Shown here one piece after another: positions 19,871 to 62,666 of a stretch of 64,000 nt of DNA (positions within the stretch are counted from its first letter, which is position 1; each line of letters begins with the position of its first letter). The stretch lies in the sequence record PZ296772.1. The stretch is one strand, 5' to 3'. Position numbers and translations under genes: made by a program. Source of the stretch: a phage. The notes below the pieces were generated by a model. That model worked only from the letters and a program-made list of their open reading frames with translations. It was not told where the DNA came from and did no database searches.

Positions 19871-19878
19871 TATTTATA
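19871..19878 (-). promoter_or_regulatory. late promoter for gene 22
   Basis: Reverse complement TATAAATA 31 nt upstream of gene 22 start. Confidence 0.5.
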
Positions 19879-20515
19879 ATGCTTTTAAACTCTCTGCGAG
19901 AGCTTTAAATGCTTCATCAGCACTGTTTTTGGTGGTTTCCACCGAATTTTCTGATTCTGATATTTGTTTAGGAGTAACCCAAGCATCTGGAGCAGAAGGT
20001 CCCCATACGGCATCTACGCCGACGGTTAATTTAAATCCTTCGTTCACGATACGGTACCCTTTATTGGTGTCGGTTAAAGAACCAAGACCACGAGAGGAAA
20101 CACCTGGAATCCAGCCAGCTCGTATATTAGCAGCTAATTTATCGCCGGGACCATGGTCGCCTTCAATAATTCTAGCACGTCCATATACATCGTTTCCTTT
20201 CCACCACATATCTTCAATAATGATAGCGGCTTGCATAGGGTCAACATTTGCACGAGGTGGATGGTTTAATTCTCCAAGGGCTTGTTTGGTTGCGACTTGT
20301 TCTTTAATATAGTCACTTACTGCTTTTTCCAAAACGCGTTTAGGATATAAACGTTTATTTCGGTTAACAACCTCTGCCTGAAGAAAAATACCTTCTATAT
20401 AAAGCCCTGGTTTTAAGCCAGAATCTTTTCCATCATGAGATTCCAACATTGGAACGCCATCAATAATCTCACCGGGTTGACCCCAAGTTTCAATAAGTAA
20501 CTCGGGTTTATTCAT
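19874..20515 (-). CDS. 21: prohead core protease gp21
   Basis: 213 aa (T4 212); synteny. Confidence 0.85.
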   Translation of the reverse strand: MNKPELLIETWGQPGEIIDGVPMLESHDGKDSGLKPGLYIEGIFLQAEVVNRNKRLYPKRVLEKAVSDYIKEQVATKQALGELNHPPRANVDPMQAAIIIEDMWWKGNDVYGRARIIEGDHGPGDKLAANIRAGWIPGVSSRGLGSLTDTNKGYRIVNEGFKLTVGVDAVWGPSAPDAWVTPKQISESENSVETTKNSADEAFKALAESLKAL

Positions 20516-20940: not shown

Positions 20941-21176
20941 TATTCATCGTCCTCATCATCTTCGTCTTCGTCGTCATCGCCTTCATCAGCGTCGTCTTCC
21001 GAAGCTTTAGCTTTCTTTTCTTCTTCAGGTTCTTCGCCTTCAATCAAAAATTGAGAAGCGATTTCTGCTTTGCGTGCTTCAATCAAACGAACCGTTTTTT
21101 CTGCCATTGCACTTTCAAAAAACTTTCGAGTAGCAACGAGGTCGTTTGATTTAATAGCTTGAATTAAATCGTCCAT
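20940..21176 (-). CDS. 67: prohead core protein gp67
   Basis: 78 aa with acidic D/E tail; T4 position. Confidence 0.75.
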
Positions 21177-48777: not shown

Positions 48778-49463
<686 letters not shown>

Positions 49464-49476
49464 TTTTCACAAAACA

Positions 49477-49506
49477 GTTTACATAAGGATGATGGTGTGT
49501 TACTAT
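49477..49506 (+). promoter_or_regulatory. early promoter (sigma70-type)
   Basis: GTTTAC, 18 nt, TACTAT, then CATCCTATCAA. Confidence 0.65.
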
Positions 49507-49540
49507 CATCCTATCAAATAAACAGCCTCAAGGAAATAAA

Positions 49541-49828
49541 ATGAAAACCTATAAAGAATTTATATCACCTGTTGCTAACGTTTCTACTCTGACCGAAGCA
49601 TCCCTTACTTCTGAAGTTATTAAAACAAATAAAGGACGTGAGGGTAAACCAATGATTAGTCTGGTTGACGGCGAAGAAGTAAAAGGTACTGTTTACTTAG
49701 GGGATGGATGGTCTGCTAAGAAAGATGGCGCTACTATTGTTATCTCTCCGGCTGAAGAGACTGCACTGTTTAAAGCTAAGCATATTTCTGTAGCTCAGCT
49801 TAAAATTATTGCAAAAACTCTTCTGTAA
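49541..49828 (+). CDS. internal (head-packaged) protein with capsid targeting sequence
   Basis: 95 aa; N-terminus MKTYKEFI; LTE cleavage-type motif; early promoter upstream; ipI locus position. Confidence 0.75.
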   Translation: MKTYKEFISPVANVSTLTEASLTSEVIKTNKGREGKPMISLVDGEEVKGTVYLGDGWSAKKDGATIVISPAEETALFKAKHISVAQLKIIAKTLL

Positions 49829-49831
49829 GTA

Positions 49832-49870
49832 GTTTACATGTTGATAGGACTATGTTATAGTAGTCCTATC
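49832..49870 (+). promoter_or_regulatory. early promoter with palindromic stem-loop cassette
   Basis: GTTTAC, 18 nt, TATAGT; 10 bp inverted repeat GATAGGACTA / TAGTCCTATC spans the -10. Confidence 0.65.
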
Positions 49871-49893
49871 AAAACAACCAAATGGAACCTAAA

Positions 49894-50157
49894 ATGAAAA
49901 CTTTCAACGAATTCATCTCAGAATCGTCTGGTGTGAAAATTAACAAAGCGGTCAATCAGGTTATTGTTGATATTCTTAATTTGTATAACATTGACTTAAC
50001 TCCGCATATCACGCTTGGTAACAAACGAAACTTTTTCATATTTGACACGTCTGAACTTGATGAAAATCAGTTCAATAACATTCAACGTTTTGCGAATGAT
50101 AAAGGTCTTCGACACGAGCCTGGTGGCTATAAAAAATACGCAATATATTTGAAATAA
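49894..50157 (+). CDS. internal protein-like with capsid targeting sequence
   Basis: ORF 49882..50157 trimmed to MKTFNEFISE; ISE after CTS; early promoter upstream. Confidence 0.65.
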   Translation: MKTFNEFISESSGVKINKAVNQVIVDILNLYNIDLTPHITLGNKRNFFIFDTSELDENQFNNIQRFANDKGLRHEPGGYKKYAIYLK

Positions 50158-50159
50158 AG

Positions 50160-50199
50160 GTATACAAGCCTATAGGGATATGATATAGTAGTCCTATCA
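50160..50199 (+). promoter_or_regulatory. early promoter, degenerate copy of stem-loop cassette
   Basis: GTATAC, 18 nt, TATAGT, then TAGTCCTATCAA. Confidence 0.55.
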
Positions 50200-50226
50200 A
50201 AACAAATGAGTAAATGGAGAAATAAA

Positions 50227-50412
50227 ATGAAACGCGCTGAACTGATTCGTAATGTTGCTGTAGTAATTGCTTCAATGGCCTTTAGTTTTTCGATGTTTGT
50301 AGGATTCATTTGTGGACTACTGACAACAACAGAAAATTCTATCTCATTGGTAGTAGCATTTCTAATCGGTTTAATCGCTATTGTTATGGATAAAATTGCA
50401 AAAGGTGAGTAA
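50227..50412 (+). CDS. small membrane protein
   Basis: ORF 50206..50412 trimmed to ATG after GGAGA; two hydrophobic segments; early promoter upstream. Confidence 0.5.
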   Translation: MKRAELIRNVAVVIASMAFSFSMFVGFICGLLTTTENSISLVVAFLIGLIAIVMDKIAKGE

Positions 50413-50775
50413 ATGAAATATCATGTATATGCAGATTTTGAAGCAAATCCTTCTAAAGACCCTGATTGTCGTTTGATACGCAGACCATTTGATTCAGCAG
50501 CTCAAGCATGGGCTTGGATTAAAACTTGTACTCCTTCTTACACTTTCTTTGAAGTGGTAGACGATAACGGTGTTCTGCATCCAGAACCTACAGAAACTAT
50601 TAATTTCCTTCTGTTTGCTGGATATGACTGTTATCCTCTTGGCGGTATTGACGACCTTGTTGCTACAGGAAAAACTGTTGAGGCTCTTCGCGAAATTTAT
50701 AAAAACGCAGAAGAAAATTTTGACTGGTATCATATTGTTGATGCTCATACCTTTGAAGTGGTGGAACACTCATGA
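50413..50775 (+). CDS. hypothetical protein
   Basis: 120 aa ORF, start overlaps previous stop. Confidence 0.55.
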   Translation: MKYHVYADFEANPSKDPDCRLIRRPFDSAAQAWAWIKTCTPSYTFFEVVDDNGVLHPEPTETINFLLFAGYDCYPLGGIDDLVATGKTVEALREIYKNAEENFDWYHIVDAHTFEVVEHS

Positions 50776-51062
50776 TTCTTTATGCTAAAGTAAAATCTGT
50801 CGAGAATGGATATGAAAGCGATCAACGTGCAGCTAAAGCACTAGTTAATGACTATGGTATTCTGACTAACTTTGAGGTTGAAAAGGTTTATATCGACCGT
50901 TCATCTTCGCAAGTTAAATTACTCTGTGAAGATGATAAATTTAACACAGTTAACTTTGATTTCTTTATTGAAACAGAAAAAGGCCCTCTTGAATATGATA
51001 TTTTCAAGAATCCTTTGAAATTACGTTGCATTGAATATAATTACATTAATATGGTACGGTGA
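50772..51062 (+). CDS. hypothetical protein
   Basis: 96 aa ORF overlapping previous stop. Confidence 0.5.
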   Translation: MILYAKVKSVENGYESDQRAAKALVNDYGILTNFEVEKVYIDRSSSQVKLLCEDDKFNTVNFDFFIETEKGPLEYDIFKNPLKLRCIEYNYINMVR

Positions 51063-51066
51063 GTAA

Positions 51067-51582
51067 ATGAATATTTGTTTAGGCAGTACAATTCCTAAGG
51101 GTTACGTAATTGATGTCACTACTTATGAAAATGATGGTGACAACTATAAAACCAAAACATTGTTTGAAGTGGAAGAGCATGAGCTCCAACAGTTTAAATA
51201 TCTTTTGAAGAAATTTAAGAGTCGTCATTCCAGCACTAAAGCTGAACGTTACTGTGGTAATACACCATTCAGTGATTGCTCGCTTTTAATCTACGAATAC
51301 TTGGTTGAAGGACTGTTCTCAGACCAGCTTTATCCAGAATTCATTAAAAAGGTCTTTGATATTGAAGTCGACCTTGGTAATAAATCTGAAGAAGACGAAT
51401 CGCGTGTATTCGACCTGTTCCGTGAGAATGGATATTTAGTATCAGAAGGTCTCGTTGGTATTCTTGGTCATGCTTCTGAATATTATGATTATGATTTCTT
51501 GCGTGTAGTTGAATGTGTTGAATTTGCTTATATTGAAGAAGAAATCGTTTTGCCAACTGTTAAAATGATTGATTTGCTTTAA
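51067..51582 (+). CDS. hypothetical protein
   Basis: 171 aa ORF in compact early operon. Confidence 0.55.
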   Translation: MNICLGSTIPKGYVIDVTTYENDGDNYKTKTLFEVEEHELQQFKYLLKKFKSRHSSTKAERYCGNTPFSDCSLLIYEYLVEGLFSDQLYPEFIKKVFDIEVDLGNKSEEDESRVFDLFRENGYLVSEGLVGILGHASEYYDYDFLRVVECVEFAYIEEEIVLPTVKMIDLL

Positions 51583-51661
51583 GAATTATGTGTTATTATT
51601 AATTCATACCATCTATTACCAAAGGTGCTCTAAAGTGCCTTTCATAATAGAAAGTTATTTA

Positions 51662-51735
51662 GGCCCTGTAGCTCAACGGTTAGCAGCAGTCCCCTCATAA
51701 GGGAAAGGTTACCAGTTCGAATCTGGTCTGGGTCA
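51662..51735 (+). tRNA. tRNA, anticodon CAT (Met or Ile2 type)
   Basis: Hand-folded cloverleaf: acceptor GGCCCTG/CTGGGTC (one mismatch), T arm ACCAG-TTCGAAT-CTGGT, anticodon loop CTCATAA; 3 bp D stem. Confidence 0.6.
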
Positions 51736-51741
51736 TATATT

Positions 51742-51818
<77 letters not shown>

Positions 51819-51836
51819 ACTTTAAGTGAGGAAAAT

Positions 51837-52181
51837 ATGAAAGGCAATGTTTATCTGGTAGTTCATGATTTAACGTTTTATTTTAACGAATATGATACAG
51901 TTATTTCTCATCGATTGATTAATTCGCTGTATCAGCATGCCGATTACATCTATGTTCAAAATGAATTTGGACATTGGAAGTTCATTAAAAACCGTTCTGG
52001 GTTAACTAGTTTTGAATACTTTGACCGTAAAGACCTTTTAAACGAAATCCCGTTGCAACATCGGTTCCAGAAACGTGAATCATTATATTATTGCCGTCAT
52101 ATACCAAACGCCGAATGTGTTAATGAAGCGATTAATCTATGGCGTCGGCGTCGAGAGCAAATTGATGATATGCCAAAATAA
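51837..52181 (+). CDS. hypothetical protein
   Basis: ORF 51789..52181 trimmed to first ATG after the tRNA (track ORF overlapped the tRNA). Confidence 0.5.
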   Translation: MKGNVYLVVHDLTFYFNEYDTVISHRLINSLYQHADYIYVQNEFGHWKFIKNRSGLTSFEYFDRKDLLNEIPLQHRFQKRESLYYCRHIPNAECVNEAINLWRRRREQIDDMPK

Positions 52182-52351
52182 GAAGCCGGGTCGCTACCGG
52201 CAAGTCGTCGGACTGATGTTCCCTGAATAAGACCCGACTTTAAGGCGTACATGAGTTGACATCTTAAAGTCCCTTATCTCACAGCAGAAACGGCGCACAG
52301 AATTATCGATTCGAGGAAATATCTTTGCCGTAAGCCGAGTAGCGTTTTTGA

Positions 52352-52443
52352 CGGAACGTTCGGATATGGTCGAGATATGGCCTTTTAAAAATATTGAGTA
52401 GCGTCAACTACTTAATAACCGGGTTCGAATCCCGGCGTTTCGT
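52352..52443 (+). ncRNA. tRNA-like element in structured non-coding region (candidate small stable RNA or degenerate tRNA)
   Basis: Canonical T arm CCGGG-TTCGAAT-CCCGG plus acceptor pairing CGGAACG/CGTTTCG; no canonical anticodon arm; in a 330 nt ORF-free stretch ending in a terminator. Confidence 0.3.
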
Positions 52444-52495
52444 ACAAACACTTGCCTTAGCAGGTGGAACCCCGACAAGGTTGCCGCAAGGCTTA

Positions 52496-52522
52496 GCCCC
52501 TTCCGAAAGGTTGGGGCTTTTT
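52496..52522 (+). terminator. intrinsic terminator
   Basis: GCCCC-TTCCGAAAGGTT-GGGGC then TTTTT. Confidence 0.65.
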
Positions 52523-52567
52523 GGTATAATAATAAATAGATAAGTTAATTAACTTAGGAAAAGCAAC

Positions 52568-53032
52568 ATGAAATCATACGCTGAATTTTTGACTGAACAA
52601 TCTAGTTCAGATGTAAAAGCCGCTGCGATTGCAGCAATTCAAGCAGGTAAATATTCTTACAAAGACGCCTCCGATGAAGAACGTTTCCGTTTTATTAGAG
52701 ATTTTAAAGCCGAAGGTTTTACTAATGCTAATACTGTTAGCCGAGTTTTTAAAAGCCTAGCTGCATCAGGTGAATTGTTCCAGAAAGCTACAGGTAAAGC
52801 ACCTGCGCCAAAAGCGGACCCTAAAACAGCTCAAGAAAAAAATATCGCCAAAGGAATTATTTCTAAGTATGAAGCAATTCTTAAAGAGCTTTTAGTAATC
52901 AAAACAGAAGGCCAGAAACTGGCACGAGCACATAGTTTCAAAGATAATCCTCACGCTCATAGCCTTGAGTATGTTGAAGATATCCAAAAACTTATTAAAG
53001 ACCGTATCTGGTCTGCTAAACAAATTAAATAA
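52568..53032 (+). CDS. internal protein-like with capsid targeting sequence
   Basis: 154 aa; N-terminus MKSYAEFLTE; flanked by near-identical terminator hairpins. Confidence 0.65.
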   Translation: MKSYAEFLTEQSSSDVKAAAIAAIQAGKYSYKDASDEERFRFIRDFKAEGFTNANTVSRVFKSLAASGELFQKATGKAPAPKADPKTAQEKNIAKGIISKYEAILKELLVIKTEGQKLARAHSFKDNPHAHSLEYVEDIQKLIKDRIWSAKQIK

Positions 53033-53038
53033 TAGAAT

Positions 53039-53065
53039 GCCCCTTCCTTACGGTTGGGGCTTTTT
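53039..53065 (+). terminator. intrinsic terminator (near-duplicate of 52496-52522)
   Basis: GCCCC-TTCCTTACGGTT-GGGGC then TTTTTGGTAT. Confidence 0.65.
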
Positions 53066-53098
53066 GGTATCTAGGGCATAAAAATATTTCATAAAGAT

Positions 53099-53127
53099 GT
53101 TTACTTCTTCTAAGGACATGATACTAT
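53099..53127 (+). promoter_or_regulatory. early promoter (sigma70-type)
   Basis: GTTTAC, 17 nt, TACTAT, then AGACTTATCAAC. Confidence 0.65.
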
Positions 53128-53155
53128 AGACTTATCAACCGCAGAGGAAAATGTT

Positions 53156-53461
53156 ATGAGTCTTTATACTGAACTGAATAAAAAATCTGAAGAATCTGCT
53201 GAAACTATTTTTAAAAACGTGCAAAAGCGTATTCTAGAAAAGATGTATAACACTGCAGCTAAAGGTGAAAAATCTTGCCGGTTCCCGATGAGGTGTTCTT
53301 CTGATTTATGCGCAAATACTATTGAATGGCTGGAAAGTGAAGGTCTTACGGTAGAGAAAAACCCGGCGACTTCTATTGATAGCGAATCATATATTAGTAT
53401 TTCTTGGGATAAACCTCGTACGAATGAAGGACACTACAAGTTGTTAAGTTGGAAAAATTAA
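53156..53461 (+). CDS. hypothetical protein
   Basis: 101 aa ORF with GAGGAAA SD and early promoter. Confidence 0.55.
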   Translation: MSLYTELNKKSEESAETIFKNVQKRILEKMYNTAAKGEKSCRFPMRCSSDLCANTIEWLESEGLTVEKNPATSIDSESYISISWDKPRTNEGHYKLLSWKN

Positions 53462-53470
53462 AAATAACGA

Positions 53471-53499
53471 TGTACAAGCACCAAGGATGGTGATACTAT
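53471..53499 (+). promoter_or_regulatory. early promoter in repeated cassette
   Basis: TGTACA, 17 nt, TACTAT; downstream leader identical to 17081-17125. Confidence 0.6.
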
Positions 53500-53529
53500 A
53501 GACTTATCAACTACAGAGGAGTAAACAAA

Positions 53530-53694
53530 ATGACTACTTTAATTATTTGGTTCGATGAAAATGAAGAAACATACTGTGTGAATATCGGTGAAAGTCCAAT
53601 GCCTGAATTTGAATCCTCAGATAAAAACTCTGTTGTATCTTGGGCTGAAGGTTATAAAGCCGCTAAAGGTGACGTTGAAATAATTTACATCTAA
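53530..53694 (+). CDS. hypothetical small protein (not in ORF track)
   Basis: 54-codon ORF MTTLIIWFDENEETY; leader identical to that of the 17120 gene including GAGGAG SD. Confidence 0.5.
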   Translation: MTTLIIWFDENEETYCVNIGESPMPEFESSDKNSVVSWAEGYKAAKGDVEIIYI

Positions 53695-53712
53695 GTAAGT
53701 TTATGTTATAGT
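53685..53712 (+). promoter_or_regulatory. early promoter (weaker match)
   Basis: TTTACA, 16 nt, TATAGT. Confidence 0.45.
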
Positions 53713-53740
53713 AATCACATCAAATCAAGAGGAAAACAAA

Positions 53741-53968
53741 ATGGCTAAAGTTAGTATTGATGTCGTTGATTATGAATATACCGAAGAAGTTATTCGCAAC
53801 CGTCACCCTGAAGTTCGTATCGATTCAGCCCAAGATTCCAAGTTCTGGACAACTGAGCTTAATCTGAGTGGTCCTTATGAAGCTGTTAAGAAGTTCATGG
53901 TTGAAGAATACTGCGAAGGCATGCACCCGGAAGACGCCAAGTTTTATGTCAATTTGATTAAAAAATAA
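53741..53968 (+). CDS. hypothetical protein
   Basis: 75 aa ORF with GAGG SD and early promoter. Confidence 0.55.
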   Translation: MAKVSIDVVDYEYTEEVIRNRHPEVRIDSAQDSKFWTTELNLSGPYEAVKKFMVEEYCEGMHPEDAKFYVNLIKK

Positions 53969-54003
53969 TTTACAAACTCTTGAGAGCAGAGTATAATGCT
54001 CTC
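53969..54003 (+). promoter_or_regulatory. early promoter overlapping a palindrome
   Basis: TTTACA, 17 nt, TATAAT; 7 bp inverted repeat GAGAGCA / TGCTCTC around the -10. Confidence 0.5.
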
Positions 54004-54038
54004 ATTGGATAATAAACCACCAATTGAAAGGTAATAAT

Positions 54039-54632
54039 ATGAACACACTGAAGAAACTTGTTGAATTCATCCGCACTAAACTGGGTACTGCTATGGCTAA
54101 AAATCTGACTGTCGAAGAACAGTATAATGCAGCTGCAGATAAGTTGATTACCCAAATCAGAGAACTAAAAACGGCTTCTGTTAAATCTATTAATGAAGAA
54201 AAACGTATTCGCGAACTTGTTATTGAAAAGAATAAGCAAGCCGCTTCTAAGGAACGTGAAATTCGTAAGCTCCTGGCTGAAGGACAAGATGTTACCATGC
54301 ATGCTAAGCTTGGTCTTCTGTATCGTCGAACTGCCGAACAACTTAATACAAAAGCTGACGGGTATGCCGCTATGCGAATTGAAATTGCTCGTAAGGTGGT
54401 TGAACTTGACGATGCTCGTCAGAATCTGGCAATCAAACTCGAATACATTCGTGAAACTCGAGCAGCCAATGCCCTTGGTATCTCTACGGCTGATGATGTA
54501 ATTGAAATCGCTGCACTGACTAAGGTTGATATCGAAGACACTCTGACTCGTGTTGAAACGTTCAATGGCACTCCAGCTGGTGTCGAAACCACTTCTGCCG
54601 ATGTACAAGAATATATTAACTCTTTGAAATAA
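54039..54632 (+). CDS. coiled-coil protein, possibly PspA/IM30-like
   Basis: ORF 54024..54632 trimmed to ATG; long predicted coiled-coil with a remembered resemblance to PspA-family helical regions; terminator downstream. Confidence 0.4.
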
Positions 54633-54640
54633 AATAATAC

Positions 54641-54662
54641 GGAGGACTCAGGTCCTCCTTTT
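54641..54662 (+). terminator. intrinsic terminator
   Basis: GGAGGAC-TCAG-GTCCTCC then TTTT. Confidence 0.6.
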
Positions 54663-54681
54663 GGATAATAAAGGAGTTAAC

Positions 54682-55278
54682 ATGCGAAACCAAAATAATG
54701 ATATTGACTCAATGTTCGAAGAGTTCCGAAATAAGGTAAATCCACCTACGTCTTTAGTTGATTCATTACGATATGTTGCAACTGGACGTAAATGGTACTG
54801 GTCGTCTTCTTATGAGACAACTGAATATGCAAATAACCGAAAATCTTTATTAGCCCCAGGTATTATGATTCATGATATCGGAGCTATTGCTAAACTAGTT
54901 GCAGACCATGATATTAGATTCACTGATTTCATTGCTCCTACATGGTCTGTTTGTTGTTTAAACACTGAACGGGACTATATCAGCGAACGCTCTGAAGATT
55001 ATTATGGTTTTAGAGATAAGCTCTTAAGGTCTAACATGTTTTATATCGATACTGAAGTTCTAGTCGATAATAAAAAATATTACTTTACGTTAATCGTCGA
55101 TTCTGAAACTATGTATGAAGGCAAGCCTTTGCTTAAAAGAGTTGATGCTTTAAGTGCTATTGATGCGCTTTATGAAACCATGGTTGTTAGTCCTAATTTC
55201 ACTAACAATTTAATCCTTGAGCAATTTATTATGGAATGTAGAGAATATGTCAAAGCCAACCCTATACATGCCAAGTAA
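54682..55278 (+). CDS. hypothetical protein with C-terminal EQFIMECR tail motif
   Basis: ORF 54661..55278 trimmed to ATG after AAAGGAG; no obvious TM segment. Confidence 0.55.
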   Translation: MRNQNNDIDSMFEEFRNKVNPPTSLVDSLRYVATGRKWYWSSSYETTEYANNRKSLLAPGIMIHDIGAIAKLVADHDIRFTDFIAPTWSVCCLNTERDYISERSEDYYGFRDKLLRSNMFYIDTEVLVDNKKYYFTLIVDSETMYEGKPLLKRVDALSAIDALYETMVVSPNFTNNLILEQFIMECREYVKANPIHAK

Positions 55279-55642
55279 GCCCTGGGCGTATGAATACAAG
55301 CGTAAATTAATCCCAAATGAAGTACTATTTGGCCCTATTTTAGCTTTAGCATTTTTAATCTTTATGATTATAGGAGCTGTTTTAGATTCTAGTGAAGTTA
55401 TATCGTCTGATGCAGCATTTTCATTAATGTTCGTCGCACCACTTATTGTACCATTTTTATTAATGCCTATTAACTGGGTAGGATATTGGCACCAAGGCCG
55501 TCATCACAGAGCTCGAGTTCGTGAGTGGAAAGTTCAGTGCGCAAAAGCCCAAGCTCAGTATGATGAAGCTGTTAAAAAGTATGAATATGAAGAAGCTATG
55601 GAATTCGTTAAGGAAATAAGATGCAAAAGCCTCAACTCTTAA
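55247..55642 (+). CDS. small membrane protein with EFVKEIRC tail motif
   Basis: ORF 55217..55642 trimmed to first ATG (55268 also possible); two hydrophobic helices. Confidence 0.5.
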   Translation: MSKPTLYMPSKPWAYEYKRKLIPNEVLFGPILALAFLIFMIIGAVLDSSEVISSDAAFSLMFVAPLIVPFLLMPINWVGYWHQGRHHRARVREWKVQCAKAQAQYDEAVKKYEYEEAMEFVKEIRCKSLNS

Positions 55643-55980
55643 CCGTATGGCCTTCTCTTGGTGAGAATATTTTAATTTTTATCACGAGCGCCGGCATGGG
55701 ATTTGCCTTTGGATTAGTTGGATTTCTTATTGACGGCGTTGTGTTAGGATTTATAGGGAACACTGGTGGGTTCACAGACCAATGGCAGGACTTACGGTAT
55801 ACCCAAGCCTTTGCATCCATCGCATCCTTTTGTACTGTAGTCTATTTTTACTACGATTTTATAAACCATAACAAGAAAAATAAAAAGGTTTACGCTTCTC
55901 AAATGATTAGTTATAATGAACTCCTAGCTAGACGTGAAAATGAAACAATCGAAAACTTTATTAAGGAATGTAGAAAATGA
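55621..55980 (+). CDS. small membrane protein with ENFIKECR tail motif
   Basis: 119 aa; AAGGAAA SD inside upstream gene; multiple hydrophobic segments. Confidence 0.55.
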   Translation: MQKPQLLTVWPSLGENILIFITSAGMGFAFGLVGFLIDGVVLGFIGNTGGFTDQWQDLRYTQAFASIASFCTVVYFYYDFINHNKKNKKVYASQMISYNELLARRENETIENFIKECRK

Positions 55981-56282
55981 GTAAGATTATTGAAATTAAA
56001 GTACCAGAGTTTAATGATGCCAAATCCGCTTCAGATGCAATTTATAAACTTCTGAATCAAGCTGAACGTATCGAAGAAGAAGCAACAAAGATCGCAGACC
56101 AATATTCTGTATCATTTTCTGTAGGTGATTATGGTAGCGGTCGTACTTATTATCCTAAGGGTGAAATCGTATCCCAGTGGATGAAAAATGAAATTGAAAA
56201 TAATGGCGGCGATGTTAAGCGTGAAGGTAATGGTTACGTTATTACTGAAGGTGCTTGGGTTTCGTCTTCTGCGTTGTGCTAA
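55977..56282 (+). CDS. hypothetical protein, tandem paralog 1 (C-terminal GAWVSSSALC)
   Basis: 101 aa; ATG overlaps upstream stop. Confidence 0.55.
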   Translation: MSKIIEIKVPEFNDAKSASDAIYKLLNQAERIEEEATKIADQYSVSFSVGDYGSGRTYYPKGEIVSQWMKNEIENNGGDVKREGNGYVITEGAWVSSSALC

Positions 56283-56291
56283 GGAATCATT

Positions 56292-56564
56292 ATGTCTAAA
56301 GAACAAACCGAACTGGCTGAAGCCGTAGCAAAAATATATGCAGCTATTGAGGCTGCCAAAGAAATTGCTGATAAACAAAACACAACATTCGACTTGTATC
56401 CAGCTTATGGTATGGGTGGAACCTATCATTCACCAGGACATCTTAAAGCCGATCTTGAACGTTGTACAAAAAACGGTTATGCTGAATGGGCTGATGTTTA
56501 TCAATACGACTACAACCTGAGCCTTGAAGATGGTGGTTGGGTTGCATCTTCACACACTTGCTAA
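56292..56564 (+). CDS. hypothetical protein, tandem paralog 2 (C-terminal GGWVASSHTC)
   Basis: 90 aa; junction TGCTAAGGAA..ATG conserved. Confidence 0.55.
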   Translation: MSKEQTELAEAVAKIYAAIEAAKEIADKQNTTFDLYPAYGMGGTYHSPGHLKADLERCTKNGYAEWADVYQYDYNLSLEDGGWVASSHTC

Positions 56565-56573
56565 GGAAACCAT

Positions 56574-56771
56574 ATGTCTCGTGAATTAGATTGTGCTGTA
56601 CGTACCGCGGTAGCTGCTCTAGAAAACCTGTTCCAAATTGCAACAGAAGAACGCGAAGAAGTTACATTATGGATTGAAGATAACGCAGGTCTGAATCTCC
56701 AGGACGCGATCTCATTATCTAATAATAGCATTACTGTTCAAGGCTGGGTATCGTCTAGTTATTCTTGCTAA
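56574..56771 (+). CDS. hypothetical protein, tandem paralog 3 (C-terminal QGWVSSSYSC)
   Basis: 65 aa; junction conserved. Confidence 0.5.
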   Translation: MSRELDCAVRTAVAALENLFQIATEEREEVTLWIEDNAGLNLQDAISLSNNSITVQGWVSSSYSC

Positions 56772-56775
56772 AACA

Positions 56776-56814
56776 GTTTACAATAAGATAGGACTATGTT
56801 ATAGTAGTCCTATC
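56776..56814 (+). promoter_or_regulatory. early promoter with palindromic stem-loop cassette
   Basis: GTTTAC, 18 nt, TATAGT; inverted repeat GATAGGACTA / TAGTCCTATC identical to 49843-49870. Confidence 0.65.
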
Positions 56815-56833
56815 AAATTAAATGGAGTCCGCA

Positions 56834-57073
56834 ATGATTTATTACGAAAGTATCGGAACCAAAGTGGTTGGTAAAACCATTACTCGTGAAAAGTTTGCAA
56901 AGATATTCGATATGCGTTATAAAAAATCTGAACACAAAGGCATCCGATTCGAAGATGCGCACTGTGCAATTTGCCCTTATAATGAAGACGTAAATGGTAC
57001 AATCGTTCCATTGGTAGAGGCTTCACATGATGACCTCTGGGATGAATATAATATCGCATGTCGTGAAATTTAA
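56834..57073 (+). CDS. hypothetical protein
   Basis: ORF 56822..57073 trimmed to ATG after GGAG; early promoter upstream; CAIC Cys pair. Confidence 0.5.
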   Translation: MIYYESIGTKVVGKTITREKFAKIFDMRYKKSEHKGIRFEDAHCAICPYNEDVNGTIVPLVEASHDDLWDEYNIACREI

Positions 57074-57101
57074 GTTAATGAATTAATCCGAGGAAAATAT
57101 T

Positions 57102-58058
57102 ATGATGTTAGTTATTGGTTCTCGTGCACTTCACTATCATGGTCTTATTGATTCTAGCGCTATCAAAAATAGTGATTGGGACTTTATTGCAGACCAAGGT
57201 TCTTGGAATGCATTCAAAAATCAAATGATGGGTGTATATGTTCATCAAGATAACCCTGATGTCCAAGTTTTCAAATGCTTCCATAATGGACGCGAAACTC
57301 ATTTTGAAGCATATATTGTTCCGGCAATCACTAATGTCCGTGAATTAGTCGGTGAACTCACTCCTGAAGATTTCACGTCTTCTTATGACCTTTTAAAATA
57401 CGCCAAGAAAAATTTGACTAAAGACCGTTTGACCGGGTTTTACTGGGCAACTCCTGAGATATGTCTTGCAATTAAAATGTCTCATCGTTTCAAGAAAAAT
57501 AATCCATTCTTTTTAAAGACTATGAACCATATTCAGTATCTTCGCGGTAAAGGTGTTACACTGAACGATGAACTTACTGAAATTATGCTGAAACGCCAGA
57601 AAGAAACTTTGAACTATGCTCACCCGGTTCTTGACACTTCTAAAAGTGCGTTCTTTAAAGATGACATCTATACATATGACCATGATACTATTCATGAAGC
57701 CATTGCACTAACTGACCAGCCTGCTTATAAGTTTTATATGAAAGAAGGCTCAGAAGTTATGACATCACGCGAGAAGTTCGAATCATTACCAGAAATGGTT
57801 AAATTAGCCGGTGTATATGAAGAAGCTTGTGTATTAGCTCTTGAACGTTCACAGATTCCTAACGACTTTAAAATCCATCCGAGTGATAGTTTTATGATGG
57901 CCCTTGAAAAGGTCTGTACATCAATCACATCAGGATGGTTCCGTGAGTTCGCTTGGGAAAATTATAGCAAAGTAGTAAGTATGTACCAAAGCTTAGGACA
58001 TGACGATTACGTCAAGCGTTTCAAACAAAACTTTCATATGGTAAAACCTTTCAAATAA
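57102..58058 (+). CDS. hypothetical protein, possible nucleotidyltransferase-like N-terminus
   Basis: 318 aa; GAGG SD; N-terminal GS..(x17)..DWD pattern loosely like the pol-beta NTase signature. Confidence 0.5.
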   Translation: MMLVIGSRALHYHGLIDSSAIKNSDWDFIADQGSWNAFKNQMMGVYVHQDNPDVQVFKCFHNGRETHFEAYIVPAITNVRELVGELTPEDFTSSYDLLKYAKKNLTKDRLTGFYWATPEICLAIKMSHRFKKNNPFFLKTMNHIQYLRGKGVTLNDELTEIMLKRQKETLNYAHPVLDTSKSAFFKDDIYTYDHDTIHEAIALTDQPAYKFYMKEGSEVMTSREKFESLPEMVKLAGVYEEACVLALERSQIPNDFKIHPSDSFMMALEKVCTSITSGWFREFAWENYSKVVSMYQSLGHDDYVKRFKQNFHMVKPFK

Positions 58059-58070
58059 TTTCACAAAACA

Positions 58071-58100
58071 GTTTACAAGGTCTGTAGTTGTTGATACTAT
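58071..58100 (+). promoter_or_regulatory. early promoter (sigma70-type)
   Basis: GTTTAC, 18 nt, TACTAT; leader 58103-58135 near-identical to 50192-50226. Confidence 0.65.
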
Positions 58101-58138
58101 AGACCTATCAAAACAAATGAGTGAATGGAGATATAAAA

Positions 58139-58339
58139 ATGACTACTTTGAATAAACGTTTCGGTAAAGCTAAACCTGGTTGTGCAGCAGAACGTCGTTA
58201 TGTTTTCGCTCAGTTAGAAGATGTAGAGTATCAGATTAATCAAGTTCACATTACTGGTATCGAGCCTATGTGTGGCCTTGAAGCTCTTCGTGAAGTTCGT
58301 GATGGGTATCGTCGTGACATCGAAGAAATGTCAAAATAA
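58139..58339 (+). CDS. hypothetical small protein
   Basis: ORF 58121..58339 trimmed to ATG (MTTLNKRF); leader shared with the 50227 gene. Confidence 0.5.
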   Translation: MTTLNKRFGKAKPGCAAERRYVFAQLEDVEYQINQVHITGIEPMCGLEALREVRDGYRRDIEEMSK

Positions 58340-58340
58340 G

Positions 58341-58378
58341 TGTACAAACTGATAGGGCTATGTTATAGTAGTCCTATC
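58341..58378 (+). promoter_or_regulatory. early promoter with palindromic stem-loop cassette
   Basis: TGTACA, 17 nt, TATAGT; inverted repeat GATAGGGCTA / TAGTCCTATC. Confidence 0.6.
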
Positions 58379-58395
58379 AACTTGAGGAGAATATT

Positions 58396-58701
58396 ATGAA
58401 ATTAACAGAAACCAACCGAATCGGTCTTTTTACAATATTTGCATCGCTTTTTTACGCAGCTCTTTCTGTTGCAGTATTACAAAAGGCTTACGATATGGAT
58501 GGTGTTCCTGGTTGTATATTTTTATCACCGTTTTTATTATTCGTCGGAGCTTTGATATTATATGCCACGTCCGGTTTAGACCATAATGTCTGGGTCAATT
58601 ATAAACGTAAATTGTCCGAAGAAGAACACGCAGAAGCTCGTAAAAAAGCTATTGAATCTACCAATCTAGAAAATTTCATTAAAGAATGTCGAGGAAAATA
58701 A
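58396..58701 (+). CDS. small membrane protein with ENFIKECR tail motif
   Basis: 101 aa; GAGGAG SD; two hydrophobic helices. Confidence 0.55.
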   Translation: MKLTETNRIGLFTIFASLFYAALSVAVLQKAYDMDGVPGCIFLSPFLLFVGALILYATSGLDHNVWVNYKRKLSEEEHAEARKKAIESTNLENFIKECRGK

Positions 58702-58702
58702 T

Positions 58703-59389
58703 ATGAATAGTTCTAAAGTGTTTAATAGTCAAGCTCGTGCAGTAGGTGGTTTTGCCGGCGGTATTTCTAATGATAAAATCAAGAACGAGCCTATGTTCTT
58801 CAACTGTAGTTTAGAATTTGCTTATAATAACGGCGGTCCTATTACTCGCTCTTTCATTATGAACTTGCCGGATGATTGGAACACCGACCAGGTTGTATTT
58901 GATTCACGAGTCCACATGCTGATGCCTGGTTGGTATCCTGCAATCCCAGGCTATCACCATGATGACGTACCACGCCCAGATATTCCAGTTGGTCAACACT
59001 TTATTACTGCAGGACAACCTGACTATGACAACCCTCGTTACCATTCTGAACATATTCTTGGTCTTGTTAACGCTGATGTGTGTCCTACTCATTTTGCAAC
59101 AGGAACTGCGGAGTTCAGTCAGATTCCTGATGGCGAACTTATCTATCGCCAGTGGCACAAAGAAGTCCTCGAAAAAATTGAAAAAGGTGAACTAGAGAAA
59201 TGGGAAGCTCCGGACCGTACTCTTCTTCAGTTTGATTGGCAAACATGGCACACTGGTTCTCGTGCAATTAGTAATGGATGGCGTTGGTTCGGACGTGTAT
59301 CTCGTAATACAGACAGAGTTAAAAAGATTACCAATGAAATTCGTGTCAATGCCCAAGTTTATCTGGAATTCCCTATGGAAGGCTGGTAA
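58703..59389 (+). CDS. hypothetical protein
   Basis: 228 aa; His-rich segments (GYHHDD, YHSEH) of unknown significance. Confidence 0.55.
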   Translation: MNSSKVFNSQARAVGGFAGGISNDKIKNEPMFFNCSLEFAYNNGGPITRSFIMNLPDDWNTDQVVFDSRVHMLMPGWYPAIPGYHHDDVPRPDIPVGQHFITAGQPDYDNPRYHSEHILGLVNADVCPTHFATGTAEFSQIPDGELIYRQWHKEVLEKIEKGELEKWEAPDRTLLQFDWQTWHTGSRAISNGWRWFGRVSRNTDRVKKITNEIRVNAQVYLEFPMEGW

Positions 59390-59880
59390 TGATACATAAA
59401 ATTCACTGGGCAAACATGGACGATGGCGATGAAGGTATTTCATATTATTCTATAGATTGGACAGGATGTCCATCCTACTTAGTGAAACATATTTGTCAAG
59501 AATTTAAAATCGACCAGCCAGCAGGTATTATCGTGAACAGATACATTAATGGATATCAACCTATCGATGAAGTAATACGAACAACTCAAGCTGAGCTTGA
59601 AAAGTTTTTCAATAAGTGCCAATGGATAACAGGATGGATTATATTTGTACCGTCTATATGGTTTTTCAGTACTAAGGTGAGTTCTTTCGGTTTTGTTGAT
59701 ACTATTGCTATCTTATTAGCATCTAGTATCATAAGTGTTGTTGGTGGCATCATTGGCGGCGGTACCGCCGCCATCATTATTAATCTTGTTAAAAGTAGTT
59801 TACAAGAACATAAAGACAAGATAAAAGCCAAGAATAATGAAGTTGAACGTTTTATTACCGAATGCAGGAATTTGAGATGA
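59389..59880 (+). CDS. membrane protein with ERFITECR tail motif
   Basis: 163 aa; soluble N-domain then hydrophobic Gly-rich segments. Confidence 0.55.
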   Translation: MIHKIHWANMDDGDEGISYYSIDWTGCPSYLVKHICQEFKIDQPAGIIVNRYINGYQPIDEVIRTTQAELEKFFNKCQWITGWIIFVPSIWFFSTKVSSFGFVDTIAILLASSIISVVGGIIGGGTAAIIINLVKSSLQEHKDKIKAKNNEVERFITECRNLR

Positions 59881-60113
59881 GTATAGCAATTTACATTAAA
59901 TCAGAATCATGTGATTCTTATCTGTATTCCTATGATACCGGAACGTCAGAAGAGAAAATCAAAGAAGATTTAGAAAGCGACTTGGATATGTTCCGACCTA
60001 TTTCTGATTATATGGTCCAAATATCTGATAGTGAAAGTCCGTCAACAGAAACATGTGTTGAAATTATTATACGAGATATCTTTAAACAATCACGGGACCG
60101 AGATGATGAGTAA
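59877..60113 (+). CDS. hypothetical acidic protein
   Basis: ORF 59862..60113 trimmed to ATG overlapping upstream stop. Confidence 0.45.
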   Translation: MSIAIYIKSESCDSYLYSYDTGTSEEKIKEDLESDLDMFRPISDYMVQISDSESPSTETCVEIIIRDIFKQSRDRDDE

Positions 60114-60561
60114 GAAAAATAAAGTGAAAGAACTATCAGCCGGTATTATTTTCCTTACCGAAGATAAAGAATTATTCATGGGGCGTGTAACTGGTTCTCG
60201 TCCTAAAGGTTCTTTAGCTCATCGGTGGGATATTCCTAAAGGTCGTGTCGAGCCCGGTGAATCTCCTATCGAAGCCGCTATTCGTGAATGCGAAGAAGAA
60301 ACTGGGTTTACACAATATGACCCTGCCTTCCTGAAAGACCTAGGTGAACATCATTACTCAGACAATAAGAATATTCATCTGTTCCTATATACCATCCCTG
60401 TAGAGCACGAGCAATTCAGAAACAGTGTTTGTAATTCCTATCATACATTCCCAGATGGACGACAGATTCCTGAATTTGATGCATTCGCTTTAATTAAACC
60501 TTCTCAATGGGAATATGTAATGGGCAAATCATTATATAAGGTGCTCACTACCCTCTTATAA
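60106..60561 (+). CDS. nudE: Nudix hydrolase NudE (e.1)
   Basis: ORF 60031..60561 trimmed to 151 aa; Nudix box GRVEPGESPIEAAIRECEEETG; immediately upstream of e as in T4. Confidence 0.85.
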   Translation: MSKKNKVKELSAGIIFLTEDKELFMGRVTGSRPKGSLAHRWDIPKGRVEPGESPIEAAIRECEEETGFTQYDPAFLKDLGEHHYSDNKNIHLFLYTIPVEHEQFRNSVCNSYHTFPDGRQIPEFDAFALIKPSQWEYVMGKSLYKVLTTLL

Positions 60562-60568
60562 GTAATAA

Positions 60569-60594
60569 ATACCTCCTATAAACGTGGGAGGTAT
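60569..60594 (+). promoter_or_regulatory. RBS-sequestering hairpin upstream of gene e
   Basis: 8 bp stem ATACCTCC / GGAGGTAT; the 3-prime arm is the SD of e; loop contains TATAAACG. Confidence 0.6.
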
Positions 60595-60595
60595 T

Positions 60596-61084
60596 ATGAA
60601 TATATTTGAAATGCTTCGTAATGACGAAGGTCTTAGACTGACTTTATACAAAGACACTGAAGGCTTTTGGACTATTGGCATAGGCCATTTAGTAACAAAG
60701 AACCCGTCTTTAGCCGTAGCTAAAGCTGAACTTGACAGAATGATCGGTCGTAAATGCAACGGTACAATTACACTTGATGAGGCTGAAAAGCTATTTAATG
60801 AAGACGTTGATAAAGCCGTTCGCGGAGTCTTGGGTAATGCTAAACTTAAACCGGTATATGATTCTTTAGATGCGGTTCGTCGATGTGCATTGGTCAATAT
60901 GGTCTTCCAAATGGGTGTAGCAGGCGTCGCCGGTTTTACTAATTCTCTTCGTATGCTTCAACAGAAACGTTGGGACGAGGCGGCAGTAAATCTAGCCCAA
61001 TCTAAATGGTATCGTCAGACACCTAATCGCGCGAAACGCGTAATCTCAACATTTAAAACAGGAACTTGGAAAGCGTATATATGA
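60596..61084 (+). CDS. e: endolysin (T4 lysozyme)
   Basis: ORF 60584..61084 trimmed to MNIFEMLR; catalytic E11/D20/T26 conserved; matches remembered T4 lysozyme. Confidence 0.95.
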
Positions 61085-61362
61085 AAACATATAGTGAATT
61101 TTTATCAGAATCTATTCTTAGCGAAGCTACTGACACATTTGCAACTAAGCTAGGTGCAGCTTTGGTTGAAGCTGAAAGTCTATTAGCACGTATTTCTGAA
61201 CTTGCTAGTAAGATAGATACTCGCAAATTTGAGCGCACCAGTGATATCGTTAAGCTTGAAGCATTGTTGCGCATGTGTGATAAACCAGAAGAAATCGCTA
61301 AGAACGGTTCGCTGATGAAACAACGTCTTGAAAAATATATTTCAGGCGCTTCAGAAAAATAG
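61081..61362 (+). CDS. internal protein-like with capsid targeting sequence
   Basis: ORF 61066..61362 trimmed to [10 protein letters not shown]; ATG overlaps e stop. Confidence 0.65.
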
Positions 61363-61363
61363 T

Positions 61364-61393
61364 GTTTACTTCCTCCAAGGTCTTTGATACTAT
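61364..61393 (+). promoter_or_regulatory. early promoter for denV
   Basis: GTTTAC, 18 nt, TACTAT; GGAGG SD before denV ATG. Confidence 0.65.
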
Positions 61394-61420
61394 ACATTCA
61401 TCAACTACTTGGAGGAAATT

Positions 61421-61834
61421 ATGACTCGTATCAATTTAACACTTGTTTCTGAACTGGCCGACCAACATCTTATGGCTGAGTATCGTGAATTACCACGCGT
61501 ATTTGGTGCAGTCCGTAAACATGTCCAAAATGGTAAACGTGTAAAGGATTTTAAAATCTCTCCAACATTTATCTTAGGCACAGGTCACGTAACATTCTTT
61601 TACGACAAACTCGAATTTTTACGTTTACGTCAAATCGAGCTAATCGCTGAATGTTTGAAACGCGGTTTCAAAATAAAGGACACGACGGTCCAGGATATTT
61701 CCGACATACCTGCCGAATTTCGTAATAATTATGTCCCGTCCGAAGCGTCCATTGCGATAAGTCAAGCACGCTTAGATGAAAAAATTGCTCAACGTCCGAC
61801 TTGGTACAAATACTATGGTAAATCAATTTACTAA
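61421..61834 (+). CDS. denV: endonuclease V (pyrimidine dimer DNA glycosylase)
   Basis: ORF 61409..61834 trimmed to [29 protein letters not shown]; matches remembered T4 EndoV. Confidence 0.93.
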
Positions 61835-61840
61835 GGAAAA

Positions 61841-62101
61841 ATGAAAATGTATCAAGAATTTATCTTTGAAGCAGATGCCAAAGGTCCTAAATTTAAAGTT
61901 AAAGCTTTCATTGGTGATGCGGAAGACTTTGGCTCGTTAAAACGTAATGGATATTCTTTCTTAGGTGGCGATGGTAAAGAAATCAACACCTATGCAAAAC
62001 GTAGTGAAATTGCTTATGTTGTAGCAAGCCCTAAAGTAGACGTTGGCGATATTGGATATGATTTTAACAACTTCGGAATTATTTCTGGCGGTAAAGCTTA
62101 A
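61841..62101 (+). CDS. internal protein-like with capsid targeting sequence
   Basis: 86 aa; N-terminus MKMYQEFIFE; AAGGAAA SD. Confidence 0.6.
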   Translation: MKMYQEFIFEADAKGPKFKVKAFIGDAEDFGSLKRNGYSFLGGDGKEINTYAKRSEIAYVVASPKVDVGDIGYDFNNFGIISGGKA

Positions 62102-62104
62102 ACG

Positions 62105-62134
62105 GTTTACGCTTAAGTATTAATATGGTATAAT
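62105..62134 (+). promoter_or_regulatory. early promoter
   Basis: GTTTAC, 18 nt, TATAAT, then GCTCTATCAA. Confidence 0.65.
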
Positions 62135-62164
62135 TGCTCTATCAAAACAAACAAGGAAACAAAA

Positions 62165-62494
62165 ATGAAAACGTATAAAGAATTTATCACTGAAGTTACA
62201 TTATCTGCGGAACAGAAAGCTGCTATCGAAGAAGGTAAAAATCCCAAAGTAACATATAAAGTAAATAGTAAAGGCGTTTTTGATGGTTTGGTTCAAGACC
62301 CTGAATTGAAAAAAGCTCTTTCTAAAACTAATGCGTACTTTGCTCCTAAATTTAACACAGCCGGTGTACTTATTGGATTGGATGTATTCAACTCTAAAGG
62401 TGTTCTATCTAATGCCTTTGGTTATGCCGCTAACAAAATTACCAAAGCTGCATGGGAATCCAATACCAAACAAGCTCAAAAGCCTAGAGTATAA
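62165..62494 (+). CDS. internal protein-like with capsid targeting sequence
   Basis: 109 aa; N-terminus MKTYKEFITE; first 8 codons near-identical at nucleotide level to the 49541 gene. Confidence 0.65.
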   Translation: MKTYKEFITEVTLSAEQKAAIEEGKNPKVTYKVNSKGVFDGLVQDPELKKALSKTNAYFAPKFNTAGVLIGLDVFNSKGVLSNAFGYAANKITKAAWESNTKQAQKPRV

Positions 62495-62666
62495 TTCTTG
62501 CCTAATAAAGGGAAACGCAACCTCTCCTCATGAACGTCGAGTCCTCTGAGTGATGTACCTTTTCCAACCTGTAATAAGGCCGAGCGCAATGCGGTAATGG
62601 GTTTACATAGCGAGTCGAAGGACCTAACATGTGCCACGGAACGGCCCCAACCTTAAGAGAAACTAA

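Follow-up and report, generated by a model that had tools for sequence, protein, structure and literature searches.

Six open reading frames (ORFs) on the plus strand of a 64,000-nucleotide stretch of phage DNA (sequence record PZ296772.1; the whole stretch is referred to here as the window) begin with closely similar N-terminal peptides, which raises the question of whether they encode proteins that are packaged into the phage head and injected into the next host, and whether such proteins are new. The initial annotation read the common peptide as the capsid targeting sequence that internal proteins (IPs) of phage T4 carry, and considered the six genes (W1-W6 in their order along the window; Table 1) to be an enlarged set of candidate anti-defence effectors and the most likely undescribed biology in the window. 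We propose that the six genes very probably make up the set of IPs of a T-even phage of the RB69-like (Mosigvirus) type. Their initial mechanistic reading is well supported and sound, and it describes an already known phenomenon rather than new biology; the novelty that remains is an annotation gap for the families of W3 and W6, together with a probable third cassette site at the terminator of rnaC.

A megablast search with positions 49000-63000 of the window matched 996 phage records, the closest of which are the Mosigvirus (RB69-like T-even) coliphages vB_EcoM-172859UKE1, APCEc01 and SCS57, with 95-97% identity and 97-98% query cover; by nucleotide similarity the source phage is a Mosigvirus, i.e., an RB69-like T-even phage. 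The gene order is that of RB69 and T4 in reverse orientation, viz., gene 1, 57A, 57B, an ip locus, tRNA.4/.3/.2, two tRNAs, rnaC, the e.8-e.2 block, nudE, e, another ip locus with denV interspersed among its genes, and then vs.8.

The shared leader and its predicted processing

The strict leader MK[TSM][YF]xEF[IL] together with a hydrophobic-x-Glu site is present in all six ORFs. A relaxed form of the leader (MK.[YFW].[ED]F[ILVM]), scanned in six frames over the whole 64-kb window, retrieved W1-W6 and no other ORF, always at the ORF start, and was not found in any of 200 shuffled windows used as the control; these results confirm the pattern given in the initial annotation, the site list of which (ISE, LTE, LSE, IFE and ITE) is also correct. 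The hydrophobic-x-Glu site occupies residues 8-10 in W2-W6, which is the IPII/IPIII type, and residues 17-19 in W1, which is the IPI type. An aromatic residue (Tyr or Phe) at position 4 and Phe at position 7 are invariant among the six proteins, and Ile or Leu at position 8 with Glu at position 10 are found in five, the sixth being W1 with its longer IPI-type propeptide. In the mutagenesis of IPIII by Mullaney & Black (1996), as it is summarized in a review, the first 10 residues are enough for packaging, with residues 4 and 7 governing targeting and residues 8 and 10 governing processing. The agreement at positions 4, 7, 8 and 10, the presence of gp21 and gp22 in the window and the T4-like loci of the genes support the proposed identity of the motif with the T4 capsid targeting sequence.

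Both the prohead protease gp21 and the scaffolding core protein gp22 are encoded in the same window (Table 1). The latter is presumed to be the docking partner of the leader and the former is predicted to cut off the leaders of W1-W6, whose putative sites are of the same type as those of Alt (ITE-6 and LTE-619) and as the FLTE/A site of gp23 of this phage (a slash marks the cut). Beyond the leader, no mature part is significantly similar to any other or to T4 IPII and IPIII (BLASTP against a tiny database, all E > 0.1), so that the absence of obvious similarity among the six, as initially described, holds. Likewise, no significant IPII or IPIII homology of the mature parts was detected in PHROGs, where W3 alone gives a hit, a weak and leader-driven one against phrog_7857 (E 0.0083, residues 1-43). 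The isoelectric points (pI) of five of the six mature parts lie between 8.2 and 9.7, as compared to 9.0-9.65 for the T4 IPs. The codons of the leader vary synonymously across the six genes (ACC/ACT/ACA/ACG, TAT/TAC/TTC, TTT/TTC and ATA/ATC/TTA/TTG), which argues that the leader is conserved as a peptide and not as DNA.

We also note that the ORF at 53156-53461, downstream of W3 and related to RB69ORF146c and RB32ORF130c, starts with MSLYTELNKK, where Tyr-4 and Glu-6 echo the leader; Lys-2, Phe-7 and the Glu-10 site are missing, and judged from these residues it is probably not a targeting sequence.

Loci, expression signals and cassette borders

W1 and W2 are located in the ipI locus (57B-tRNA.4) and W4, W5 and W6 in the ipII/ipIII locus (e-denV-vs.8), matching the synteny of T4. 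The start codon of W4 overlaps the stop codon of the lysozyme gene e (ATGA), and W5 starts 6 nt past denV. IP genes are thought in the literature to be confined to these two small IP loci; W3 is situated outside both, past the tRNA/rnaC cluster and between rnaC and the e.8-side genes, though it is still a repeat-flanked cassette, and in Tequatrovirus HY01 and RB32 its homologue is found at this position too.

A repeat search revealed a 46-nt element, consisting of a T4-type early promoter and a stem-loop, in three copies, which precede W1, W2 and the next gene and thereby bracket W1 and W2 as separate cassettes, and an early promoter-like element lies directly upstream of W6 (Table 1). The same upstream GTTTAC...TATAGT early promoter with an embedded stem-loop is found at T4 ipI, ipII and ipIII. 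No canonical late promoter (TATAAATA) is present in the 49-64 kb region, and we therefore infer the supply of W1-W6 during head assembly by analogy with T4 only. The missing late promoter was considered as evidence against packaging and rejected, since TATAAATA is not found within 200 nt of T4 ipI, ipII or ipIII either and these genes have the same early promoter and stem-loop; given this common promoter architecture, the expression signals match those of bona fide IP genes.

The early-type promoters, the lack of TATAAATA and a 31-nt repeat (81% identity) across the start regions of W1 and W2 would also agree with a shared N-terminus that arose as a side effect of cassette recombination or that serves to initiate translation, W2-W6 then being ordinary cytoplasmic early proteins that are not packaged. 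We regard this as extremely improbable, as proven T4 IP genes have the same promoters, the peptide is kept while its codons vary, and the motif covers the protease site and not the start region alone. Furthermore, the motif occurs in no other ORF of the window, and in the related phage APCEc01, of which ~95% of the genome was scanned, it is confined to this ~13-kb region. Distant relatives of W3, at 48-60% identity, also retain a [YF]xEF[IL]xE leader (MLKFNEFLAE, MLEYSEFLKE and MKFKEFLIE), which speaks for selection acting on the leader.

Elements of the form GTTTAC...(stem-loop)...CTATCAA occur in seven copies on the plus strand of the window (at 1730, 49477, 49832, 50160, 56776, 58071 and 62105) and in none on the minus strand. 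They border small accessory genes, and the hairpins at 49832 and 56776 are nearly identical (GATAGGACTATGTTATAGTAGTCCTATC). In the literature, promoter/stem-loop repeats are considered to drive IP shuffling and the elements of the IP loci are viewed as analogues of PeSLs (promoter-early stem-loops). As in the PeSL cassettes of T4-type hyperplastic regions, individual small genes are bordered by repeated units of promoter and hairpin, at places where relatives have gained or lost genes; however, the elements of the window have AT-rich stems and belong to the T4 early-promoter type (GTTTAC...TATAGT), and such elements are described as analogues, and not homologues, of the RB49 PeSLs.

W3 is flanked by direct repeats of a terminator hairpin (Table 1). 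Two copies of this repeat are also present in the carriers of W3 homologues ATK47, SA79RD, APCEc01, HY01 and RB32, whereas T4, which does not have the W3 gene, has a single copy just after rnaC (8826-8861 of the T4 sequence compared). This is a clean polymorphism of a filled against an empty site, and suggests gain or loss of the cassette by recombination between the terminator repeats. Just upstream of W3, at approximately 52306-52444, lies a homologue of rnaC (in T4 the small stable RNA 'species 1') that has a tRNA-like GGTTCGAATCC arm; its identity is set by alignment, the 75 nt compared (52370-52444) agreeing with the 3' half of T4 rnaC except for one base. A search of Rfam found no family for this RNA.

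Family membership of the six proteins

The mature part of W1 (residues 20-95) matches the Pfam family IPI_T4 (PF11634) with an E-value of 2.6e-49 and 165.5 bits (cutoff 25), and the same residues align with chain positions 1-76 of 'Internal protein I' (PDB identifier 2JUB; E 7.4e-41), such that mature W1 begins exactly at the start of 2JUB. W1 is 96-98% identical to IpI of RB69, ATK47 and SA79RD. It resembles T4 IPI, an inhibitor of GmrSD/CT596, in its length (95 aa), in its 19-residue propeptide ending in xTE/A, in its 76-aa mature part that aligns end-to-end with 2JUB and in its position after gene 57B. By sequence, W1 is an IPI orthologue, and its function as known by orthology would be inhibition of a GmrSD type IV restriction enzyme. 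W1 differs from T4 IPI* at six residues of the mature part and the RB69 allele at four, and specificity against GmrSD variants may differ; the RB69 protein, four residues off T4 IPI, has been reported to prevent GmrSD restriction of RB69.

W2, W4 and W5 belong to families that are already named or annotated as internal head proteins. W2 is 71% identical to RB32 Ip9 over its full length (90 columns, E 2.6e-45) and matches phrog_7673, an 'internal head protein' (2.6e-48); a tblastn search of 50,697 phage records, used for all homologue counts given here, found it in 176 records, several of them labelled internal head protein. An alternative in-frame ATG at 49882, four codons upstream, is used as the start of W2 in some database entries, but the homology to RB32 Ip9 starts at MKT, the start given in the initial annotation. 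W4 is 47.6% identical to RB32 Ip5 over 84 aa (E 8.8e-24), matches the 'internal head protein' phrog_3499 (3.5e-46) and has homologues in 497 records; the RB32 annotation itself ties Ip5 to RB69ORF127c. W5 is 94% identical to RB69p125, which is labelled 'internal head protein', matches phrog_2667, the PHROG that holds Ip7 (6e-20), and has homologues in 218 records. The names Ip9 and Ip5 are traced by the RB32 annotation to phages such as K3, RB15, T2 and T6, and the mapping of Ip4-10 to W2 and W4 rests on that annotation; leader-containing ip sequences were not found in the supplements of Silas et al. (2025). Like Ip4-Ip10 of T-even phages (K3, RB15, T2, T6, RB32 and others), the genes of the window have the leader, small size and repeat-flanked cassettes, but the Ip5-like W4 is in the e-denV locus, whereas Ip5 replaces ipI in RB32.

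Resemblance of W2-W6 to T4 IPII (phrog_7857) and IPIII (phrog_5341), the inhibitors of GmrSD-ECOR21 and GmrSD-ECOR17, respectively, consists of the 10-residue type of leader with a cut predicted here after Glu-10, and the T4 genes share the region around e and denV. However, similarity is not significant past the leader and none of the six proteins is orthologous to either. IpII- or IPIII-like genes are present at the e/denV locus in SA79RD and ChristianSchoenbein but not in this window. Of the six, one (W1) is simply an orthologue of a known T4 IP, which is the database outcome that the initial annotation had named as counting against its reading.

PHROGs, RefSeq and GenBank list both W3 and W6 as 'hypothetical' or as being of 'unknown function'. 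W3 matches phrog_2280 ('unknown function'; 2e-53), which also holds RB69ORF149c, and is 76% identical to RB32ORF133c; its homologues occur in 512 records, with no annotation or the label 'hypothetical' in each of the 30 rows sampled. When mature W3 was compared exhaustively by HMMER with 1.84 billion representatives, no more than 8 relatives emerged. W6 is 97% identical to RB69ORF123c and matches phrog_3966 ('unknown function'; 6.5e-32), which also holds RB69ORF124c; its homologues are found in 91 records, nearly all Mosigvirus, with no sampled row labelled internal protein, and a word-indexed homology search gave 2 clusters. Neither protein has a significant match among PDB sequences. NCBIfam matched none of the six proteins, and the sole Pfam match is that of IPI_T4 to W1. 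As far as these searches reach, W3 and W6 each belong to a narrow, phage-specific family that has no connection to any bacterial one.

The AlphaFold2 model of W3 (mean predicted local distance difference test score, pLDDT, 74.7) is that of a helical, two-domain protein, in which a three-helix N-terminal domain is followed by a Pro/Lys linker and then by a helical hairpin. With this model, Foldseek retrieved only generic helical bundles from the PDB (best E 0.43, TM score about 0.3) and only its own uncharacterised family from BFVD. The model of W6, behind which stand three near-identical sequences, has a pLDDT of 52 and is too poor for a structure search.

The repertoire in related phages

Counterparts with 93-100% identity to each of the six proteins are present in the published genomes of RB69 (GenBank AY303349) or its relatives. 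A motif scan of the equivalent region identified 5-7 leader-bearing genes each in RB69, APCEc01, ATK47, SA79RD and ChristianSchoenbein (5 in ATK47), in a different mix in each phage, with Ip7, ORF124c-type, ORF149c-type and IpII-/IPIII-like genes varying in presence among the five; RB69 has, in addition, a W4 homologue with a degenerate leader. The set of six is thus enlarged with respect to the three IPs of T4 but not for Mosigvirus, in which six or seven leader-bearing genes are normal.

These comparisons bear on whether W1-W6 are new, undescribed injected anti-defence effectors whose expansion is peculiar to this phage. The missing functional labels of the W3 and W6 families, the lack of a solved-structure relative or of a Pfam or NCBIfam match for these two proteins and the position of W3 outside the classical loci all favor such a possibility. 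It is nevertheless improbable, given the near-identical counterparts of all six in published genomes including that of RB69, the membership of four of the six in named or annotated IP families, for which it is largely refuted, and the fact that the IP class and its anti-restriction role are published. On these same grounds, i.e., a published class and mechanism and four known families, the initial view of the genes as the most likely undescribed biology is not supported.

Proposed mechanism and function

What is shown here, namely the motif with its sites, the assignment to families, the presence of the processing machinery, the repeats around the cassettes and a repertoire that varies among relatives, can be read in the light of the T4 work as follows. 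Each gene would encode a small protein (8-16 kDa when mature, basic in five of the six) whose first ~10 residues form the capsid targeting sequence. During head assembly the leader would dock the protein on the gp22 scaffolding core, and gp21, encoded 30 kb upstream in the same window, would cut after the Glu of the hydrophobic-x-Glu site, at residue 10 in five proteins and at residue 19 in the IPI orthologue. The mature protein would remain beside the DNA inside the head and, before any phage gene expression, be ejected into the next host, where it would most likely block a specific modification-dependent type IV enzyme of the GmrSD family, with one inhibitor per enzyme subtype. The genes would behave as cassettes independent of one another, each with repeated elements of the early-promoter/stem-loop or terminator kind at its borders, and would be shuffled by recombination between these elements, as a result of which close relatives would carry different combinations. 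By analogy with T4, W2-W6 would thus be packaged, cleaved and injected, and they may likewise have anti-restriction activity.

This mechanism has a long history. The idea of unrelated injected proteins with a common leader in T-even phages goes back, as traced through later papers, to 1994, and by 2007, according to such later accounts, more than 30 IP variants had been counted. Rao & Black (2010) describe the IPs as diverse injected anti-restriction or defence proteins with the leader alone in common. Srikant et al. (2022) found that IPIII is needed on ECOR17 and is active from the cytoplasm without its leader. According to Silas et al. (2025), Ip1, Ip2 and Ip3 each inhibit a distinct GmrSD, and all genes of the IP loci were proposed to target GmrSD variants. 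RB69-type DNA carries an arabinosylated and not a glucosylated cytosine derivative; the DNA of the window phage would be arabinosylated too, if it is like that of RB69, so that the enzymes that matter for Mosigvirus IPs may be others than the ones examined with T2, T4 and T6.

Several observations weigh against the assignment of W1-W6 to the IPs, in addition to the missing late promoter. The mature part of W4 is near-neutral. In the RB69 allele of W4 (6923-7204 of the RB69 sequence compared), the remainder of which is ~98% identical to W4, the leader is degenerate (MKTYMNFYQNLSLNE/A, beginning MKTYMNFYQN). Some W3 homologues are frameshifted or truncated to 93-111 aa, with a common N-terminal domain followed by divergent sequence, which indicates pseudogenisation or domain loss in some lineages, where the gene is thus dispensable. 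Structure prediction, carried out for W3 and W6 as the initial annotation had proposed, yielded no functional clue for W3 and no usable model of W6. Ip4-10 showed no reproducible target among the GmrSD systems active on T-even phages (Silas et al. 2025), which leaves a GmrSD target for W2 and W4 unproven. Finally, no virion proteomics for any Mosigvirus IP was found in a literature search under RB69-like phages and RB69 ORF names; in the HY01 paper five gel bands were identified, one of them an unnamed 'hypothetical protein', which is uninformative. As a separate observation, the RB69 allele of W4 retains Tyr-4, Phe-7 and a downstream LNE site, and may serve as a natural test of the minimal leader requirements.

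The proteins could also be packaged and yet be mainly structural, acting as basic counter-ions for DNA condensation or ejection with no specific host target, their diversity being drift in dispensable proteins. The basic nature of five of the six mature proteins would fit this role, as would the contacts of T4 internal-protein lysines with DNA phosphates, which may aid packaging, and the Ip4-10 proteins for which the GmrSD screen gave no reproducible target. We consider it unlikely, since all three T4 IPs have specific GmrSD targets, W4 is not basic, and families that are 93-100% identical across many genomes and variable in presence show the pattern of selected accessory genes.

Within the preferred reading of W1-W6 as an IP repertoire, we tentatively suggest that W3 and W6 are genuine packaged and injected proteins missed by annotation, that W3 marks the rnaC terminator as a third place where IP genes insert and that the targets are defence systems beyond the screened GmrSD panel, for example type IV enzymes recognising arabinosylated RB69-like DNA or a non-restriction first-response system. 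Taken jointly, these proposals are somewhat doubtful.

Genomic context

The coordinates of the six genes, the head-assembly genes and the repeated elements are given in Table 1.

Table 1. Leader-bearing genes, head-assembly genes and repeated elements of the window (a slash marks the predicted cut)
Feature	Position	Strand	Leader or putative gp21 site	Mature part	Assignment or evidence
W1	49541..49828	+	19-residue propeptide MKTYKEFISPVANVSTLTE/A; LTE at 17-19	76 aa, IPI*-like	IPI (Ip1) orthologue
W2	49894..50157	+	MKTFNEFISE/S (ISE)	77 aa, pI 9.0	Ip9-family internal head protein
W3	52568..53032	+	MKSYAEFLTE/Q (LTE)	144 aa, pI 9.6	leader-bearing, phrog_2280; directly downstream of rnaC
W4	61081..61362	+	after residue 10, then SILSE/A (second LSE at 13-15)	83 aa, pI 6.3	Ip5-like internal head protein
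W5	61841..62101	+	MKMYQEFIFE/A (IFE)	76 aa, pI 8.2	internal head protein, homologue of RB69p125
W6	62165..62494	+	MKTYKEFITE/V (ITE)	99 aa, pI 9.7	leader-bearing, homologue of RB69ORF123c, phrog_3966
gp21 prohead protease	19874..20515	-			Pfam Peptidase_S77, E 2.8e-107
gp22 scaffolding core protein	19028..19840	-			Pfam T4_CASP, E 2.8e-89
gp68	20515-20940				adjoins gp21/gp22
gp67	20940-21176				Pfam GP67, 3.2e-20
gp23	17442-19010		FLTE/AEIGGDHGY		T4-like site
46-nt T4-type early promoter and stem-loop, three copies	49477-49522, 49832-49877, 50160-50205	+			repeat search; GTTTAC...TATAGT matches
Early promoter-like element	62105..62145	+			directly upstream of W6
32-nt direct repeats	52496-52527, 53039-53070 (span 52496..53070)	+			91% identical; terminator hairpin and TTTTTGGTAT; flank W3

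Alt is another head-packaged, gp21-processed and injected protein. By synteny with APCEc01 only, the start of the window (1-~1730) would lie inside an Alt-like ADP-ribosyltransferase gene, and the candidate ejected proteins would therefore number seven and not six.

Two further groups of small genes were observed. A tandem triplet of ORFs at 55977-56771 (101, 90 and 65 aa; the RB69ORF139c/137c/136c region) is paralogous and shares the C-terminal motif G(A/G)WV(S/A)SSxxC-stop, the ends being …EGAWVSSSALC, …DGGWVASSHTC and …VQGWVSSSYSC. Several predicted membrane proteins of the e.2-e.4 block (55217-55980, 58396-58701 and 59389-59880) likewise have a common C-terminal motif (…ENFIKECRK, …ENFIKECRGK, …ERFITECRNLR and …EFVKEIRCK), which suggests that they form a family of paralogues whose cytoplasmic tail is conserved.

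Implications

The IP class is established, as are its mechanism and arms-race logic, and the present findings open no new question. Their practical value is modest and lies in a list of six candidates with predicted mature N-termini and in the documentation of a cassette site with gain and loss at the rnaC terminator. The widespread W3 and W6 families merit the label 'internal protein' and inclusion in target screens. Injected IPs act before phage gene expression; they are a first line of resistance to modification-dependent restriction and contribute to the host range, a role which is relevant to the choice of therapeutic T4-like phages.

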